Source of the DNA: a virus
Lineage: Duplodnaviria; Caudoviricetes
IMG/VR virus record: IMGVR_UViG_3300036796_000078
Location: 1 to 43,071 of that record
DNA: 43,071 nt
Reading direction: 5' to 3' (one strand)
Shown: positions 3,609 to 41,181 of the stretch, piece by piece
How the letters are laid out: each line of letters begins with the position of its first letter
Position numbering within the stretch: position 1 is the first letter of the stretch
Program-made: the position numbers and the translations under genes
Notes under the pieces: generated by a model
Seen by the model: the letters and a program-made list of their open reading frames with translations, nothing else
What the model was told of the DNA's origin: nothing
Database searches by the model: none

Positions 3609-3734
3609 ACATCCTCCACGCTTTTTTGGTTACGGGAATCCCTTGCCATTGCTGGCAATAAATCACTGAGGGATTCATTTAATTGGCTGACAGGCTCTGC
3701 AAAACCTGTAGCCTCGTTACTCCACGTTGAAAGG

Positions 3735-3872
3735 TATTGCGGTGCCGGGTGCCTCCCGGAGCTCTGGCTGAACTGGCAATAACCAGAGCGGGTTTAGACT
3801 TTGAGCCTCAACCGATCGCGTAATCGTTTGGGCCAGTTCACCACACTCGCACTTGGTGCCATCACCACAATA
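3735..3872 (-). ncRNA. Putative pseudoknotted structured RNA, copy 1
   Basis: Closing stem 3872-3863/3744-3735; CCGGG-AGGCA-CCCGG hairpin; stem 3789-3781/3769-3761 whose loop (3777-3770) is complementary to 3839-3832; same architecture as 37281-37398. Confidence 0.75.
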
Positions 3873-3944
3873 GAAATATCACTGCTAGGAAAGCGGCAGA
3901 TTGGGTTATGAGTCCCGTTACCGCCCAGTGATATTGCTGTTGTG
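3866..3944 (-). other. Long stem, RNase III-like processing site B
   Basis: 19-bp inverted repeat 3866-3884/3926-3944 with 2 differences. Confidence 0.6.
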
Positions 3945-4134
3945 TGCTGACCTCCCAGCCAGCGTGGTTCGGGTAACTGCGCCACCACGCAGCTTACGAA
4001 CTGGCAGACTTTTACGGTGCTGCCCCCGATGTTGTGTTCACAGGCCTATGCGATTCCCCGCCGTTCCATGAGGTCTTGTTGGCCATATTGGCGCTTAGCG
4101 CCGAACTGTTCCGCATTACCTGATCCTCCACAAC
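3939..4134 (-). ncRNA. Putative structured RNA, divergent longer relative of copies 1 and 2
   Basis: GTTGTG/CACAAC ends; stem 3990-3984/3968-3962 with loop complementary to 4120-4112; 3' hairpin GCTG-GGAGGT-CAGC. Confidence 0.5.
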
Positions 4135-4199
4135 GTTGAGAGCACTTGACGCCTCTGTGACGCGGCTCGGTGCGCCCGTCAAATGCTCTCATCGTTGTG
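4129..4199 (-). other. Long stem, RNase III-like processing site A
   Basis: 23-bp inverted repeat 4129-4151/4177-4199 with 2 differences. Confidence 0.65.
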
Positions 4200-4278
4200 A
4201 AAAAGTGGCGGTTAAACCGGTCGAACACTATCTTCCCTCTCCTGATAGGGTTGAAAGCCCCGGAGAAACCGCCAAAAC
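4200..4278 (-). ncRNA. Multibranched hairpin with U-run; ends resemble DicF-type elements
   Basis: Transcript TTTGGCGGTT...AACCGCCACTTTTT with internal hairpins; DicF resemblance is limited to the ends and position. Confidence 0.4.
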
Positions 4279-4287
4279 ACTCAACGT

Positions 4288-4443
4288 TTAAAACACAGAC
4301 TTGTATTCCACATCCACTTCACAGCATTCGAACGTCATGACACCGTTATCTGCATCACAGATGAGTTCGGCATCAGGGAAGAGGTACAGGAAGGTGATCA
4401 AGTCCCGTAAGCTGGTGTCGGCCATTTGCTTGATCATCTTCAC
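4288..4443 (-). CDS. Small acidic protein (51 aa), first gene of the pL transcript, not in the ORF track
   Basis: GTG start with GAGG RBS; MKMIKQMADTSLRDLITFLYLFPDAELICDADNGVMTFECCEVDVEYKSVF. Confidence 0.7.
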   Translation of the reverse strand: MKMIKQMADTSLRDLITFLYLFPDAELICDADNGVMTFECCEVDVEYKSVF

Positions 4444-4475: not shown

Positions 4476-4518
4476 AATATAACTACTTTAAGTAGAGAAT
4501 TGCAACTACAAAAAGTAG
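4476..4518 (-). promoter_or_regulatory. pL promoter with oL operators
   Basis: -35 TTGCAA (4505-4500), -10 TATATT (4481-4476); operators CTACTTTAAGTAG 4483-4495 and CTACAAAAAGTAG 4506-4518. Confidence 0.8.
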
Positions 4519-4610: not shown

Positions 4611-5291
4611 TTATCCAAAATCGAGCATCTTTAGGGGTAAGCACCTGATAAGTTTGCCGAAGATATGTAAATCCGACATCTCGCACTCTTCGATGTAGAA
4701 AGGGGGATAGTTTTCATTGTCTGACAGCACGGCAAGCTTTCTACCTTTAACCTTCTGTAGCCGCTTAACAAAAGTAGAATCTTCGAAATTGAAAACGTAG
4801 ACGCCGTCGCCGTTAAAGTGATCAATGCTTCTGTCCACAAAAAGCAAATCTCTCGGGCTTAAGGTTGGCATCATACTGTCGCCATCAACGTTGATAAGCT
4901 CAATCCCGTCTAACGTTTTCCGGCCAAATAATTCATAAACGCGTTCATCCGGTATTTCAATCGAGCTGATTACAGTAGGGAACGGCTGGTTTATATATCC
5001 ATGACCTGCAGAGGCATGTAGATCGAACTGTTTGATTCTTACTGTCCCTTTATCTGGCCTATCAAAGCCTTCCATGACTCCGTAATCAAGGTATGCCGGT
5101 GAGACCGACAATTTCTCGGCGATCTTCAACATCTTTTCATCCCTCGGCTTTGCTGTGCCCAGAGTGTAGCGCCGCGCCATCTCATAAGAGACGCCACTCA
5201 ATTCGGATAACTCTTTAACCCCAAACGCCATTATCTGGAGCGACTTGTTAAGCCGATCGGCAAAGTCTTTGTATTTAGCTTCTTCCACCAT
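4611..5291 (-). CDS. cI: CI-like repressor (HTH plus S24 peptidase)
   Basis: HTH N-terminus; ASAG cleavage site, GDSM Ser and FVKRL Lys; start reassigned to ATG 5291 because the longer ORF runs through oR. Confidence 0.93.
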   Translation of the reverse strand: MVEEAKYKDFADRLNKSLQIMAFGVKELSELSGVSYEMARRYTLGTAKPRDEKMLKIAEKLSVSPAYLDYGVMEGFDRPDKGTVRIKQFDLHASAGHGYINQPFPTVISSIEIPDERVYELFGRKTLDGIELINVDGDSMMPTLSPRDLLFVDRSIDHFNGDGVYVFNFEDSTFVKRLQKVKGRKLAVLSDNENYPPFYIEECEMSDLHIFGKLIRCLPLKMLDFG

Positions 5292-5298
5292 GAGTGGA

Positions 5299-5368
5299 AG
5301 ATTAAGCGCACAAAACATAGTTGTCATTTCTATTTTAAGTTGCAATTAATTACTACTTTAAGTAGTAT
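5299..5368. promoter_or_regulatory. oR with divergent pR and pRM
   Basis: Operators 5353-5365 (identical to oL1) and 5330-5342; pR TTGCAA(5340)-17-TAGTAT(5363); pRM ATGACA(5327)-17-TAATCT(5304) on the minus strand. Confidence 0.8.
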
Positions 5369-12560: not shown

Positions 12561-12808
12561 GTTTTCATCTCATGGAAACTCAAATTTGAGTGATTTTGCG
12601 ATTGCTTGAGAACAATTAACCCTGTGGCTGACGGGCCAGGTAACTATCGCGGAATGCGTCAGGGTTCATATTTTAGAGGGTCGCCATAGAGCGGCCTTCT
12701 TTCGTTTTTGCGCCCGCCAATCACTGTTATCCGAAATTTTCACGCCGTGGCGGTGCGCAATTTTTTATTTCGAGACTACCGACGGCACCGACCTATTGGG
12801 AGGTGAGG

Positions 12809-15883: not shown

Positions 15884-17341
15884 ATGGAAGTAGTGATTAA
15901 CGGTGTTCGATACGCACCAATAACTGATCGTGCTTCAAATATCGGCATAGCAATAAGCACCCATAATCGCTATGACGTTTTAGCCCGCGCTATTGAGCAT
16001 CAGCTTAAATATCTCCCAGCCGGTGCGCTGGTGGTTGTCGTTGATGACGGGTCATCTGAAACGGTTGCAGTTCCTGAGGGCGTTAAGCTTATTCGCAGTG
16101 ACATGTCACGCGGAATCGTTGCAGCCAAAAATGCCAGTATCGAAGCACTGATTAATGCTGGGTGTGAGCATCTGTTTTTGTGGGACGATGACGCATGGCC
16201 TATCGCTGGTGGATGGGAACAGCCATACATCGAATCACCTGAGCCACATCTGGCTTATCAGTTTCAGGACTTCGCTACCGGCAAGAAGCTGAATGATATT
16301 GCCGTTCTTTACCGTGATGGTAAGCATGTCGCTTATACCGGTCAGCGTGGCGTGATGTTGTATTACCACCGAAGCGCGATTGAAAAAGTTGGTGGCTTCG
16401 ACTCCATTTATGAACGCGGCATGTATGAGCACTCCGATCTGGCGCTACGCATCCACAACGCCGGGCTCACGAGCTGGGCGTTTGCTGATGTGGTCGGTTC
16501 GGAAAAGCTGATTTATTCGCTTGATGAGCATGAGGCGGTAGAGCGTTCGGTTCCAAAGCCTGACCGTGAGGCGCAGGTTAAACGCAACGTCACCATTCAC
16601 AACAAACGCCGCGATGATGGTTACACCGGTTATGCGGAGTACCGGCAGAAGCAGAGTGTGGTGATTACTACGTTACTAACAAGCCAGCCGGACCCGCAGC
16701 GCGGCAGCAAAATGACTCCATCACCTGACATGCTGGCTAAGTGGTCGGCTTCGTTGCGTGGTTGTGGTCGTATCGTTCTGGCTGATGATCTGGAGACGGC
16801 ACCACCTGATGCTGAGCTATTCCGCGTTCCTGATGTGAAGATGAATGTCTATTTCCGGCGCTGGCTACACATCTGGCAGCACCTTCGCGATCACCCTGAA
16901 TATCACTTCGTCTGGTGCACCGATGGCACTGACGTTGAAATGCTGCGTGAGCCGTGGACAGAGATGGAGCAGGGCAAGATTTACGTTGGCTCCGAACCAA
17001 AGACAAACGCTGATGCGTGGGCTAAGCAGAGCCACCCTGAAGCAATTTATCAGTCGTTCCTCGCAGATCATCAACATGATGTAATGCTCAACGCTGGTTT
17101 GCTCGGGGGCTCTCGCGCTGACGTAATGGCAATAGCTCACGGCATTGTCCGATTGTATTACCAGATTGAATCACTGCGCTTCTGGCAGAAAGAGAAAGCG
17201 GCTGCTGCCGTAGGTGACATGATCGCCTTTGGCATTGTCGCGCATCGATACGCTGACAGGCTGGTGACCGGCCCTCGCGTTCACACAGTCTTTAAGATGG
17301 ATGGCATCGGTAAGGAGTTTGCCTGGTGGAAACACAAGTAA
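15884..17341 (+). CDS. Two-domain glycosyltransferase (GT2-like plus a second GT-A domain)
   Basis: IAISTHNR, VVDDGS, GIVAAKN, LWDDD, VGGFD, EHSD; C-terminal WCTDGTDV and MLNAGLLGG. Confidence 0.85.
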   Translation: MEVVINGVRYAPITDRASNIGIAISTHNRYDVLARAIEHQLKYLPAGALVVVVDDGSSETVAVPEGVKLIRSDMSRGIVAAKNASIEALINAGCEHLFLWDDDAWPIAGGWEQPYIESPEPHLAYQFQDFATGKKLNDIAVLYRDGKHVAYTGQRGVMLYYHRSAIEKVGGFDSIYERGMYEHSDLALRIHNAGLTSWAFADVVGSEKLIYSLDEHEAVERSVPKPDREAQVKRNVTIHNKRRDDGYTGYAEYRQKQSVVITTLLTSQPDPQRGSKMTPSPDMLAKWSASLRGCGRIVLADDLETAPPDAELFRVPDVKMNVYFRRWLHIWQHLRDHPEYHFVWCTDGTDVEMLREPWTEMEQGKIYVGSEPKTNADAWAKQSHPEAIYQSFLADHQHDVMLNAGLLGGSRADVMAIAHGIVRLYYQIESLRFWQKEKAAAAVGDMIAFGIVAHRYADRLVTGPRVHTVFKMDGIGKEFAWWKHK

Positions 17342-17943
17342 AGTTTGCCATCGTGGCGCACGAGTCGCGCTTCGATATGGCGGTATCTCTTGCCGATAAC
17401 CTTCCAAATTATCAAATCTTTGTTGATCGCGAATCGAAGGGTGCAAACGCCAATCACCTGCGCGCATTACGCTGGGCATCCACGCAGGATTGCCGGGTAG
17501 TGATTCTGGAAGATGATGCGCTGCCTGTGCCGAGCTTCACTGACAAAGTGACTGACTGGCTGGCGCGATTCCCTGATGAACTGGTTAGCTTCTATCTGGG
17601 TACCGGCAGGCCGCCGCAGTATCAGCTTGAGATAGCAACAAAGCTGATCGACGCCGACAAGCGGCAGAGTGATTACATCACGATAAACCGGCTTATTCAC
17701 GGCGTCTGTTACAGCGTGCCCGCCAGTAAGTTGGAGCGCGTGTTAAGTCGCTGGAATCATGGTTCACCTGCTGATTATGCAGTGGGTGATGCATGCGGTG
17801 GTGCTGTGGTGTACCCGTGTTATTCACTCGCTGACCATGCTGATGTATCAACGGTCGAGCGCCACCCCGATAACACACCGCGCACAGAACGCCGCCGCGC
17901 ATGGAGGCTTGATGCCGCAACGAATACCGAGAGCCTGCCGTAA
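17326..17943 (+). CDS. GT25-like glycosyltransferase
   Basis: GANANHLRAL...VILEDDA, HGVCYSV, PADY, YPCYSLADH. Confidence 0.7.
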   Translation: METQVKFAIVAHESRFDMAVSLADNLPNYQIFVDRESKGANANHLRALRWASTQDCRVVILEDDALPVPSFTDKVTDWLARFPDELVSFYLGTGRPPQYQLEIATKLIDADKRQSDYITINRLIHGVCYSVPASKLERVLSRWNHGSPADYAVGDACGGAVVYPCYSLADHADVSTVERHPDNTPRTERRRAWRLDAATNTESLP

Positions 17944-18262
17944 GCATGGCTGCGCTAAGACAACGACCGACCGTTCTGGATATTGTGCCGACCATATCAA
18001 CGAAGGATGGCAGCAGCACCAGAATGGTCAAAGCCGCCATCAGCGTGGTTATGGCAGTGAATGGGATGTCAGACGCGCAAGAATACTGAAGCGTGACAAA
18101 CATCTCTGCCAGCAATGCATGAGGGTTGGTCGGGCATCAGCAGCAAAGACTGTTGACCACATCAAAGCTAAGGCTCATGGGGGTACCGATGACGATTCGA
18201 ACCTTGAAGCCCTGTGCTGGCCTTGTCACAAGAGTAAAACAGCGCGCGAAAGGCTCAAGTGA
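17912..18262 (+). CDS. HNH endonuclease, terminase cofactor (HK97 gp74-like)
   Basis: RDKHLCQQC..VDHI..GG.DD.SNLEALCWPCH; GGAGG RBS before ATG 17912. Confidence 0.92.
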   Translation: MPQRIPRACRKHGCAKTTTDRSGYCADHINEGWQQHQNGQSRHQRGYGSEWDVRRARILKRDKHLCQQCMRVGRASAAKTVDHIKAKAHGGTDDDSNLEALCWPCHKSKTARERLK

Positions 18263-37013: not shown

Positions 37014-37241
37014 ATGAAAAACATTATTGTTATTGCTTTGGGTATGCTAGCGGCCGGTTGTCAGTCCTTACCTCCGGAGCAGTGCACTGCTAATGCAAGG
37101 ATTGGCGGGCAGGATACTACAGTTTCTGTTTACGGCGTGCGAAAGCAAGCTAATCAGACTCAGTATTATGCAGGAAATCCTTTTGGCTGGAAGTGGGTAA
37201 GCGCCAATAACTTCACAAGCTCAACTTGTGACAAATCTTAA
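37014..37241 (+). CDS. cor: Cor superinfection exclusion lipoprotein
   Basis: Lipobox LAAGC; IGGQDTTV.VYGVRK.ANQTQY.AG.PF.W.WVS.NNF..STC; candidate promoter TTGATA(36958)-18-TATAAA. Confidence 0.88.
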   Translation: MKNIIVIALGMLAAGCQSLPPEQCTANARIGGQDTTVSVYGVRKQANQTQYYAGNPFGWKWVSANNFTSSTCDKS

Positions 37242-37245
37242 TAGG

Positions 37246-37274
37246 TTTACGATTTTATATTTATAAGCTAAATT
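37246..37274 (+). promoter_or_regulatory. Sigma70-like promoter for the ncRNA
   Basis: TTTACG-17-TAAATT; predicted +1 near 37281. Confidence 0.65.
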
Positions 37275-37280
37275 CCATCT

Positions 37281-37398
37281 GCTGCTGTGAATCCCCCTAT
37301 GCGGTGGGGCGACAGTCTATTTCTCTCGAAAGATAGAATACAAACGAGACGCGAACCGACGACTGTAAGGTTCACCGGGAGGCACCCGGCACAGCAGC
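37281..37398 (+). ncRNA. Putative pseudoknotted structured RNA, copy 2
   Basis: Perfect 9-bp closing stem; GAACC/GGTTC stem whose loop GACTGT pairs with ACAGTC (37312-37317); CCGGG-AGGCA-CCCGG hairpin; own promoter and terminator. Confidence 0.8.
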
Positions 37399-37410
37399 TC
37401 AATTATAAAG

Positions 37411-37435
37411 ACCCGGCCATCGCGCCGGGTTTTTT
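37411..37435 (+). terminator. Intrinsic terminator
   Basis: ACCCGGC-CATCGC-GCCGGGT followed by a T-run. Confidence 0.85.
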
Positions 37436-37452: not shown

Positions 37453-38553
37453 ATGCCAGCAGGCACTATAGCTTTGACCAACGGTTCTAACGCTGTAAGC
37501 GGTACAGGAACCAGCTTTACTACTGAGCTGAAGCAAGGTGATTTCGTTTACGTCACAGTGGGCAGCGCCCCTTACACGCTGGTGGTATCATCCGTCACAT
37601 CAGATACCCAGTTAACTCTTTCAATTGCTTTCGATGGCCCTACGACATCAGGCCTTGCGTGGAATGCTGTTCCGGCATCAATGCAGGTAGCTATAACACA
37701 GAAAATACTGAATGATTTCGCACAGGTTGCGCGTGGACGCATTCTGGACTTCCAGAACTGGCAGAAAATTTATAGCAGCGATCCATCAGTCACCGTTACC
37801 CGCCCTGACCGTACACAGTTCATTGGCCCAAGTTGGGGCTACATGGCAACTCAGTTTGCAAATAAAGCAAATCTTGTGAATGACGTCGTAGAGGTTGTGC
37901 ATGGAGGTACCGGTCAGAAAACTCTATCAGGGGTCATGACGTGGTTAGGGCTTGGAGATGCAGCGTTTAAAAATACTGGCACAACATCAGGGAGCCTTGC
38001 TGCCGGTAATGATGCTAGATTTGTTAATTTTGCTGTTTCAAGTTCCCCAAAAAATATCGTCGTTTCAAACTCATTCAGATGGGATGTGCCTGCAGGATTA
38101 ATTTGTCATGGCGGGGCGAACTCGGCATCTCGCACATCAGTTTTTACGATCGATTGGACTTCAGGTGGCGGCACACACATCTTCATCGACAGTACAGACA
38201 TGGGACAGGTGCAATTCATTACATCAGACGAAAGACTTAAAGAGAAAATTGAGCCTGCAAAATCAGGATTTATTGAACGTGTTAATGCTCAGGAAATCAT
38301 TGAATACCAATGGATTGACCAGAAAATGCGTGGTGATAGTCGCATGCGCGGGTTTATTGCTCAGCGAGTGGGTAAAGTTGATCCAATTCTGATGAATGGC
38401 ACGGAAGATGGGCAATACGGATTAGAGATTATAGGTCTATTGGCTGATGCGTATGGCGCTCTTCAGGAGCAGCATAAATTAATCAAGAATATGGAAGTTA
38501 TTATTTTTGAGTTGCAGGCTCGCATGAAATCAATTGATGGCCTCGATTCATAA
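37453..38553 (+). CDS. Side tail fibre with C-terminal S74 intramolecular chaperone
   Basis: MPAGTI.LTNGS..VSG.GT.F anchor; SDERLKEKI...GFIAQ...coiled coil. Confidence 0.88.
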   Translation: MPAGTIALTNGSNAVSGTGTSFTTELKQGDFVYVTVGSAPYTLVVSSVTSDTQLTLSIAFDGPTTSGLAWNAVPASMQVAITQKILNDFAQVARGRILDFQNWQKIYSSDPSVTVTRPDRTQFIGPSWGYMATQFANKANLVNDVVEVVHGGTGQKTLSGVMTWLGLGDAAFKNTGTTSGSLAAGNDARFVNFAVSSSPKNIVVSNSFRWDVPAGLICHGGANSASRTSVFTIDWTSGGGTHIFIDSTDMGQVQFITSDERLKEKIEPAKSGFIERVNAQEIIEYQWIDQKMRGDSRMRGFIAQRVGKVDPILMNGTEDGQYGLEIIGLLADAYGALQEQHKLIKNMEVIIFELQARMKSIDGLDS

Positions 38554-39250: not shown

Positions 39251-39490
39251 ATGCCACGTCAAAGCGATATCAATCCATCATTTAACGCAGCCATCACGAT
39301 TGACGCCGGAGGTAGGCGAACCATTACCACCTCAGCATTTGTCAAAGAGCTTGCTGCACATAATCACATCTGGACGCTTAAGCAGGCCAATCGCTGGATT
39401 GAGGAGCAGCAATGCGACTTTAAGGACATCTCAACCGAAGAGGGTGAGCGCCGCACATTCATGATCCGCAATATGGGCAGGGTTCGTTGA
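39251..39490 (+). CDS. Small SOS-inducible hypothetical protein
   Basis: GGAAGG RBS; directly after the SOS box; coupled to the next gene. Confidence 0.75.
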   Translation: MPRQSDINPSFNAAITIDAGGRRTITTSAFVKELAAHNHIWTLKQANRWIEEQQCDFKDISTEEGERRTFMIRNMGRVR

Positions 39491-39813
39491 TGGGCTTTCC
39501 ATCACCGGCGCAGGATTATGTCGAGAGTCGGCTCGACCTTAACGCTTTGATGGTGTTGCGCCCTGCAGCGACGCTTTTCATTCCTACGGTAGAAGGTCTG
39601 GTGCTGGTCGATAAGTCAGTGAGGCCGAAAGAGGGAAATGTCATTTACTTTGAGGCGTGGGGAACATTTCAGATCGGCAGGATGGGTAAGCATCACATTG
39701 TGTGTCGAGATGGGGAGACCATTGAAGGCGAAGCGCTGGAGGATGTGACCATAGTGGGTATTGTTACTTTTGAAGTGCTACATATGCATGATGAAAGCAG
39801 GCCAACGATTTAG
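39490..39813 (+). CDS. UmuD'-like S24-fold protein lacking catalytic residues
   Basis: MGFPSPAQDYVE.RLDLN; no GDSM Ser motif; Lys motif replaced by IGRM. Confidence 0.78.
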   Translation: MGFPSPAQDYVESRLDLNALMVLRPAATLFIPTVEGLVLVDKSVRPKEGNVIYFEAWGTFQIGRMGKHHIVCRDGETIEGEALEDVTIVGIVTFEVLHMHDESRPTI

Positions 39814-40938: not shown

Positions 40939-41181
40939 GTTTCCCTCGGGTGATAATGCCATTGCGTAATAAGCGTAGCTGGTTTTGGCAAGGTCAATTT
41001 GTTACGAAGATTCAATTTAAGAGTAACGAAATTTTAACTGAGTTGGTTTTTTGAACGATTTCTTGATCTGATGCGCACGAATACCCCATTTGGGGTAAGT
41101 GGGAGCCAGCTCACAGACTTCGGCCCACAGATTCAATGTGGTATTATCGCCGCCTCATTCATTGCCGTGATTCTCCCTTCT

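Follow-up and report, generated by a model that had tools for sequence, protein, structure and literature searches.

An STnc100 RNA domain beside cor in a lambdoid phage, with a divergent second copy and a predicted five-helix, pseudoknotted fold

STnc100, which adjoins stx2 in Shiga-toxin phages, is described as one of the most frequently annotated bacterial small RNAs (PMC9029176). Northern sizes have been given for EcOnc06 (about 177 nt) and EcOnc27 (about 235/247 nt) (PMC4104026); EcOnc27 is reported to overlap STnc100 after stx2B, and its overexpression to raise fimZ by a mechanism described as unclear (PMC12711010, PMC7873438). PasD1 and PasD2 are presented as Northern-verified, Hfq-dependent RNAs that start at P1, the closing stem of the domain described below, and pair through their tail (PMC8550237). 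A preprint terms PasD and STnc100 homologous, and the word "pseudoknot" is absent from its main text, the supplements of which may show more (bioRxiv 10.64898/2026.05.13.724894); PasD2 is also listed as the top CsrA-bound chimera partner (bioRxiv 10.64898/2026.08.12.744399). The name EcOnc13 for the PasD homologue rests on a table in PMC8550237, and the EcOnc13 probe gave no match when compared with the Sp3 locus. HnrS (PMC13502914) is by its description a different RNA of 66 nt and was set apart. A literature search, with most subscription journals outside its reach, returned no paper with this fold or with a mechanism for the domain.

The stretch of DNA analyzed here (the window, 43,071 nt from an IMG/VR virus record) has the gene content of a lambdoid temperate phage, including CI, Cro-like, CII, Q, lysis, head and tail genes. 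Rfam searches placed an element downstream of cor (copy 1; Table 1) in STnc100 (RF02076) with 81.9 bits (E 4e-16, model positions 1-206), above the gathering threshold of 47 bits, and this was the sole gathering-level Rfam match within the window. A sequence-only reading had been unable to name a family for the element; copy 1 is a new member of a catalogued family, and the novelty claimed for it is lost. The same reading had pointed to a second copy on the opposite strand, and all of the segments that it quoted were found in the sequence where it had placed them. Copy 2 is a divergent second copy, scoring 16.3 bits against RF02076 (E 0.65, model positions 31-147), which is under the 47-bit threshold, and 52 bits with model R1, of whose training set it is a part. 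Its homology to STnc100 is accepted because it has the exact 18-mer and the helices of copy 1. The window has two exact occurrences of the 18-mer and no more when three mismatches are allowed, against a chance mean of 0.05, and none of 100 shuffles reached two occurrences. No third STnc100-like copy was found in the window with model R1 below E 1.6.

Two other readings of copy 1 were rejected. A 67-codon open reading frame across it has no PHROG match, and in 12 of 12 relatives the frame meets a stop codon after 14-29 codons. ARAGORN predicted no tRNA gene, with no RF00005 match at either copy. Elsewhere in the window, two glycosyltransferase genes and an HNH gene lie between the lysis cassette and the terminase (15884-18262); a UmuD-like gene (39487-39813) at the right end of the phage is followed by host-like genes (an ABC transporter at 41071); and the Q-holin leader (12590-12780) has several hairpins without an STnc100 copy or a gathering-level Rfam match.

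Table 1. Positions of the two STnc100 copies, their parts and their neighbors in the window.
Feature	Position	Strand	Basis
Copy 1, STnc100 core domain, subtype A, 118 nt	37281..37398	+	Rfam RF02076, pair counts
Copy 1 P1, then AAU	37281-89/37390-98	+	
Copy 1 P2, loop UAUGC	37293-308	+	
Copy 1 P3	37309-11/37350-52	+	
Copy 1 pseudoknot, ACAGUC (37312-17) with GACUGU (37361-66, P4 loop)	37312..37366	+	Cognate versus non-cognate partner tests
Copy 1 variable region, between the pseudoknot segments	37318-49	+	
Copy 1 P4, then A37374	37353-57/37369-73	+	
Copy 1 P5, loop AGGCA	37375-89	+	
Predicted sigma-70 promoter, -35 TTTACG, 17 nt, -10 TAAATT	37246..37274	+	8/12 consensus matches
Predicted +1	near 37281	+	
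12-nt tail and intrinsic terminator, cor's own 3' UTR	37399..37435	+	Kept at empty cor sites
Terminator with U tract	37411-37435	+	
cor superinfection-exclusion gene, upstream neighbor of copy 1	37014..37241	+	PHROG 1119, E 1e-24
Tail fibre gene, downstream neighbor of copy 1	37453..38553	+	PHROG 1980
CI-like repressor, fixes the early-left context of copy 2	4611..5345	-	PHROG 4
Promoter-like site, may drive an early-left transcript with copy 2	4476..4505	-	9/12 match, not above regional chance
Copy 2, divergent subtype B domain, early-left leader	3735..3872	-	Exact 18-mer, shared helices
Copy 2 pseudoknot	3839-3832 with 3777-3770	-	
Copy 2 P5	3759-3745	-	

The domain is predicted to be a five-helix junction with a pseudoknot, and covariation supports this fold. 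From 5' to 3' it runs P1, AAU, P2 (loop UNNGC), P3 (2-3 bp), a segment X, a variable region, P3', P4 with a loop that holds X', a single A, P5 (loop AGGCA) and P1'. This is the order of elements described earlier with the addition of P3, which had been overlooked; the loop then given as "TGCG" is actually UNNGC, closed by C-G. Both copies have complementary strands in the closing stem, the pseudoknot and P4, as had been claimed, and the two copies fold better than shuffled sequences (z -3.7 for copy 1 and z -3.5 for copy 2), although for copy 2 the lowest energy belongs to another structure, one without the knot. The covariation read from these two copies extends to their homologs. In a structure-fitted alignment of 78 sequences, 93.8% of cells are paired and both partners vary in 20 of 27 pairs, whereas none of 500 shuffles reached the observed pairing and slid controls gave 40-48%. 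The pseudoknot was assessed in 54 non-redundant elements (52 of 53 cluster representatives plus both window copies, eight matches without the 5' landmark having been dropped), which have 50 different X segments and a mean cognate duplex of 7.4 bp. This duplex is at least 6 bp long in 47 of the 54, compared to 36% of non-cognate pairs (0 of 10,000 permutations). When the test was repeated with a fixed window at other loci, where 41 representatives stood for 57 elements, the corresponding figures were 31 of 41 and 31% (0 of 10,000 permutations), relatedness among elements being left uncorrected in both tests. The P3 dinucleotides among the 54 elements were GC/GC in 42, GG/CC in 7 and GT/AC in 1, as counted by a parser that scored using that pairing and misparsed about four of the remaining elements; GT/AC variants were seen at L041, L115, L306 and L421. 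Fixed sequence is limited to the junction, one loop and P5, and P1-P4 and the pseudoknot vary but keep their pairing. P5 is nearly invariant even without selection for it, the exact 18-mer being present in 76 of 92 elements found through the 5' half alone.

A natural knot-free form was seen at L041 and L115, where X pairs as a plain helix of 8-9 bp (a long P3) and the P4 loop is tiny. A search with a sequence-free descriptor returned many GC-rich false positives and no trustworthy new lineage. Direct kissing between the P2 and P5 loops (L2 and L5) was considered when one divergent subtype looked compensatory, and it was set aside on mixed covariation: at the four loci where L5 is changed to UAAC, L2 is UAGU in two and UAGC in two. 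It is plausible that the two conserved loops are in contact and form one recognized face; PasD has neither of them.

The cor locus exists with and without the element. Among 36 related IMG/VR cor loci, 11 carry it and 25 do not, and the latter keep a homologous tail and terminator; N15 carries the element at cor, and phi80 and Aeromonas phage pAEv1818 do not. The distance from the cor stop to the tail-fibre start is 207-235 nt at filled loci (10 of 11 measured) and 62-64 nt at empty loci (24 of 25 measured), where the terminator lies about 20 nt after the cor stop. The tail and terminator, present at empty sites, are therefore cor's own, and the variable unit is the promoter plus the domain, about 148 nt. 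Consequently, the terminator that had been credited to copy 1, correctly placed 12 nt after it, belongs to cor; the N15 annotation has a terminator in the same position. In the window, the terminator scanner gave only a minus-strand hairpin, and separate scripts placed the hairpin on the plus strand. The description of a stand-alone "moron" needs amending: the element is portable, structured and pseudoknotted, and copy 1 has its own predicted promoter and a patchy presence, but the terminator was there before the element, and neither a promoter nor a terminator of its own accompanies copy 2. On a rough Cor tree, in which some start codons are misassigned, the filled loci are spread over three places, and their element sequences are related, which suggests one origin of the cor-site elements followed by loss or exchange.

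The sigma70-like promoter that had been noticed before the closing stem is present, and its hexamers are conserved (identity 0.88 and 0.89, compared to 0.70 for the spacer, among 11 relatives with L464 left out); at 8/12 it is under the cut-off of a promoter scanner, which reported none. Copy 1 is probably transcribed in the lysogen from this predicted promoter as an RNA of about 155 nt. The earlier proposal of lysogen expression is probable for copy 1, expression in E. coli having been shown for the relatives EcOnc06, EcOnc27 and PasD only. A search of sequencing runs for expression gave small shares only, and soil metatranscriptome contigs that carry cor and the element also carry tail and other structural genes, and so show relatives rather than transcription.

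The order promoter, domain, terminator, gene could also be that of an attenuator, riboswitch-like or a put-like antiterminator, with read-through into the tail fibre or lysis genes, and the location of subtype B in a leader with no N-like gene identified would fit an antiterminator. This is very unlikely for the family, since terminator 5' arms pair with the domain at a median percentile of 0.41 relative to 68 control terminators, 33 of 34 predicted folds retain the terminator, and at cor it occurs without the domain. A subset of E. coli terminators (the GCCCCUCUCCGGAGGGGC type) pairs with P2 at the 3rd percentile, and a local switch is possible there.

Copy 2 sits in the non-coding early-left leader, on the minus strand downstream of cI, and no promoter or terminator adjoining it was found. 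It has a P1 of 10 bp and a GG/CC P3, and it belongs to another subtype than copy 1. In subtype A, a promoter with at least 8/12 matches precedes 34 of 61 elements (in 22, its -10 ends 9-12 nt upstream of GUGAA) and P1 averages 7.0 bp; in subtype B, such a promoter precedes 1 of 13 elements and P1 averages 15.5 bp, the promoter counts having no shuffled control and two B elements being misclassed as A. Because copy 1 is subtype A and copy 2 subtype B, the pair is not a duplication: the "sister copy" of the sequence-only reading is a second copy of the family from the other subtype rather than a recent duplicate. At least two related phage contigs hold both subtypes (L004/L437 and L090/L430).

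The leader around copy 2 is itself structured, positions 3700-4290 folding better than shuffles with z -5.8. Upstream of copy 2 (4290-3880, minus strand) is a chain of more folded units, which includes a terminator-like domain and a stem of more than 20 bp. The chain also has, near 3960-3940, a hairpin similar to P5 that could not be confirmed as a third copy, and GGG-ACTCATAA-CCC near 3915-3900, which resembles the initiator-tRNA anticodon arm.

The element that the sequence-only reading placed after dicF in the E. coli prophage Qin is real and lies between dicF and dicB. Faubladier 1990 and 1994 may already describe the structure in Qin. The P5 of the Qin element has compensatory changes (CCUGG/CCAGG), and its P1 exceeds 20 bp. 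The reported RNase III end of the 72-nt DicF (PMC5069750) maps to L255:17454, inside this long P1, a position placed by arithmetic from the annotation that may be off by a few bases. A cut there would likely shorten P1 of the released domain to 9 bp, as in copy 1. By eye, the 5' part of the 190-nt DicF (L255:17246-17382) and a stretch in a P1 isolate (L401:~1050-1165) resemble a domain without P5, with pseudoknots GUAUGG/CCAUAC and GCAUGG/CCAUGC respectively; model R1 misses both.

These locations raise the question of whether the element acts in cis, either as a site where its transcript is processed or by blocking 3'-5' decay, so that copy 1 would stabilize the cor mRNA and copy 2 would segment the early-left transcript. 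Copy 1 does lie within cor's 3' UTR (in L464 only 16 nt separate the cor stop from P1), subtype B copies do combine a near-absence of promoters with a long P1, and RNase III reportedly cuts in the long P1 of the Qin copy. However, a conserved promoter immediately ahead of P1 suggests that the RNA is transcribed separately, the majority of cor loci dispense with the element, and the P1 of copy 2 is short; overall, a role in cis is improbable.

The 18-mer is present in about 3200 stored IMG/VR stretches, as estimated from 3 of 64 parts. In a genome scan of 9 of 64 parts, 34 of 125 18-mer matches also had the 5' half; 33 of these 34 were from Enterobacterales, one was a 388-base scaffold labelled Prolixibacteraceae, and two further enterobacterial matches were cut by locus ends. 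With 24 candidates scored per genome, which does not imply absence, 0 of 150 other class-level genomes matched, and 150 other order-level genomes gave two strong and two marginal matches. The lambdoid window and the 33 of 34 matches agree with STnc100 being an element of enterobacterial prophages. The contexts were the Q-holin leader, the early-left leader, cor, a tRNA region in a P1 isolate and host-like genes. In G002, which has 11 matches, four domains stand in tandem before a holin; about 10 nt separate two of them, and a single obvious terminator closes the row. A terminator follows within 120 nt in 34 of 73 elements, with tails of 6-59 nt (median about 25).

Copies near host-like genes (L306, L421, L426, L318, L424 and L265) include settings 198 nt before a kdgM porin gene, 169 nt before a flagellin gene, before a GNAT gene, and 33-46 nt before an open reading frame divergent from a LysR gene; domestication of such copies as leaders is possible. 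In the P1 isolate, a full subtype B copy (L401:2402-2526) and a divergent copy with its P5 loop expanded to AGUUCAGCA (L401:2141-2242, E 0.011) follow tRNA-Asn/tRNA-Thr. An RNA-guided system and a protein antitoxin pair were rejected on the lack of a constant neighbor gene among 59 flanking open reading frames scanned of 72 listed.

Theta ribozymes free RNAs beside tRNA genes, and a multi-copy, pseudoknotted element with conserved junction bases that also occurs beside tRNA genes could be a self-cleaving ribozyme by which RNAs are released from phage transcripts. It is highly improbable that STnc100 works in this way, given that no ribozyme covariance model matched in the Rfam searches and that P1 varies from about 5 to 22 bp. 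Furthermore, the EcOnc06 RNA, which was probed inside the domain (the EcOnc27 probe lies in the tail), measures about 177 nt, close to the full length of about 162 nt computed from P1 to the first terminator. EcOnc06 is an expressed full-form relative.

We tentatively prefer the reading that the STnc100 domain is a shape-recognized RNA that binds a host protein in the lysogen rather than pairing with mRNAs, and the fold itself is probably the working part. This follows from the addition of only promoter and domain at cor, the nearly tailless tandem domains and the probable release in Qin. Copy 1, as a 118-nt domain between cor and cor's terminator, would be transcribed in the lysogen from its own predicted promoter and would fold as a five-helix junction locked by the pseudoknot; subtype B copies, copy 2 among them, would be excised from the early-left transcript, with RNase III making the cut in those that, like the Qin copy, have a long P1. 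The L2 and L5 loops would then present one face to the partner. The partner is taken to be a host factor because no phage gene is a constant neighbor, and a tRNA-handling or tRNA-attacking enzyme is one candidate because copies sit among phage tRNA genes. The sequence-only reading had offered a protein decoy, an antitoxin mimic, an anti-defence RNA or a ribozyme; protein binding fits best, the antitoxin, anti-defence and ribozyme roles being conjectural. Counting against protein binding, the studied relatives bind Hfq, PasD pairs with mRNAs through its tail and functions without P5 and the UNNGC loop, most terminator-bearing copies have a longer single-stranded tail that could hold a seed, and most cor loci (25 of 36) are without the element.

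Those same observations bear on whether the domain is instead a scaffold, that is, a protective 5' domain for an Hfq-dependent pairing sRNA or for an mRNA, with the seed in the tail and that of copy 1 vestigial or very short. EcOnc06, EcOnc27 and PasD were all recovered on Hfq; the measured PasD 5' end (741157) is the start of P1, and the motif CUCACA(GG) of PasD targets can pair with the tail, a part of PasD beyond the domain. Furthermore, the 190-nt DicF starts, by eye, with a similar knotted domain lacking P5, and some copies head an open reading frame with no terminator between. At copy 1, however, the tail is cor's 3' UTR: no conserved single-stranded seed was found, the 12-nt tail having its homolog in the 3' UTR of cor loci that lack the element, and since the tail is less conserved than the domain (identity 0.72 vs 0.91) and occurs with the terminator at empty sites too, copy 1 has no seed of its own. 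Tandem domains leave almost no tail for a seed, a double-strand cut in P1 of Qin would part the domain from dicB rather than cap dicB, and a plain hairpin would protect a 5' end, leaving the invariant loops unexplained. A scaffold is, on this evidence, less likely than a protein-binding RNA.

A broader form of the protein-binding reading, which is decidedly doubtful, would make the STnc100 core a free-standing, tRNA-shaped module of temperate enterobacterial phages, made by its own promoter or by RNase III excision and often multicopy, that occupies a host tRNA-recognizing or anti-phage protein and is not primarily an Hfq sRNA; the tails of PasD and the long DicF would be later additions to copies that had lost P5. 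If the fold is a protein decoy, STnc100 would be a widespread RNA-only module for host manipulation or counter-defence. N15 (filled) and phi80 (empty), both harmless laboratory phages with the terminator in the same position, are a natural pair at cor that separates the folded domain from any seed, which makes its function directly testable.

Among known systems, the nearest to copy 1 are STnc100 itself and the EcOnc06 and EcOnc27 (sRNA103) RNAs of E. coli O157 prophages, which have a predicted promoter, domain, tail and terminator in the same order; the EcOnc06 and EcOnc27 loci of Sakai hold the same full domain, at 88 and 85 bits with model R1. Copy 1 differs in its location after cor rather than in the Q-lysis leader, and in its use of cor's terminator with a 12-nt tail. 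The printed Rfam structure of STnc100 is without P3 or the pseudoknot, covariance models being unable to display pseudoknots. PasD1 and PasD2 (EPEC; homologue EcOnc13) have the same core of P1, P2, P3, pseudoknot and P4, and PasD was detected by model R1 at E 7e-7 from outside its training set, but they lack the P5 hairpin and the UNNGC loop and have a tail of about 60 nt with an mRNA-pairing seed.

The nearest relative of copy 2 is the element in the dicF-dicB spacer of E. coli K-12, which has no RNA annotation in the K-12 record. Both are of subtype B with a GG/CC P3, lie in an early-left operon and lack a promoter or terminator of their own; they differ in P1, which in Qin is the longer and has the reported RNase III cut. 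Beyond this family, C4 (P1/P7) and CI (P4) are immunity RNAs processed by RNase P, and like these and tRNA the domain has several arms that meet at a junction, with a terminal stem to close it. P5 lies immediately next to the 3' strand of P1, and the average of 7 + 5 bp would approximate an acceptor-T helix. The copies are nevertheless without a T-loop consensus, a free CCA, or a tRNA or C4 model match, and, in contrast to tRNA, C4 and CI, their loops are constant or paired internally rather than with outside targets.
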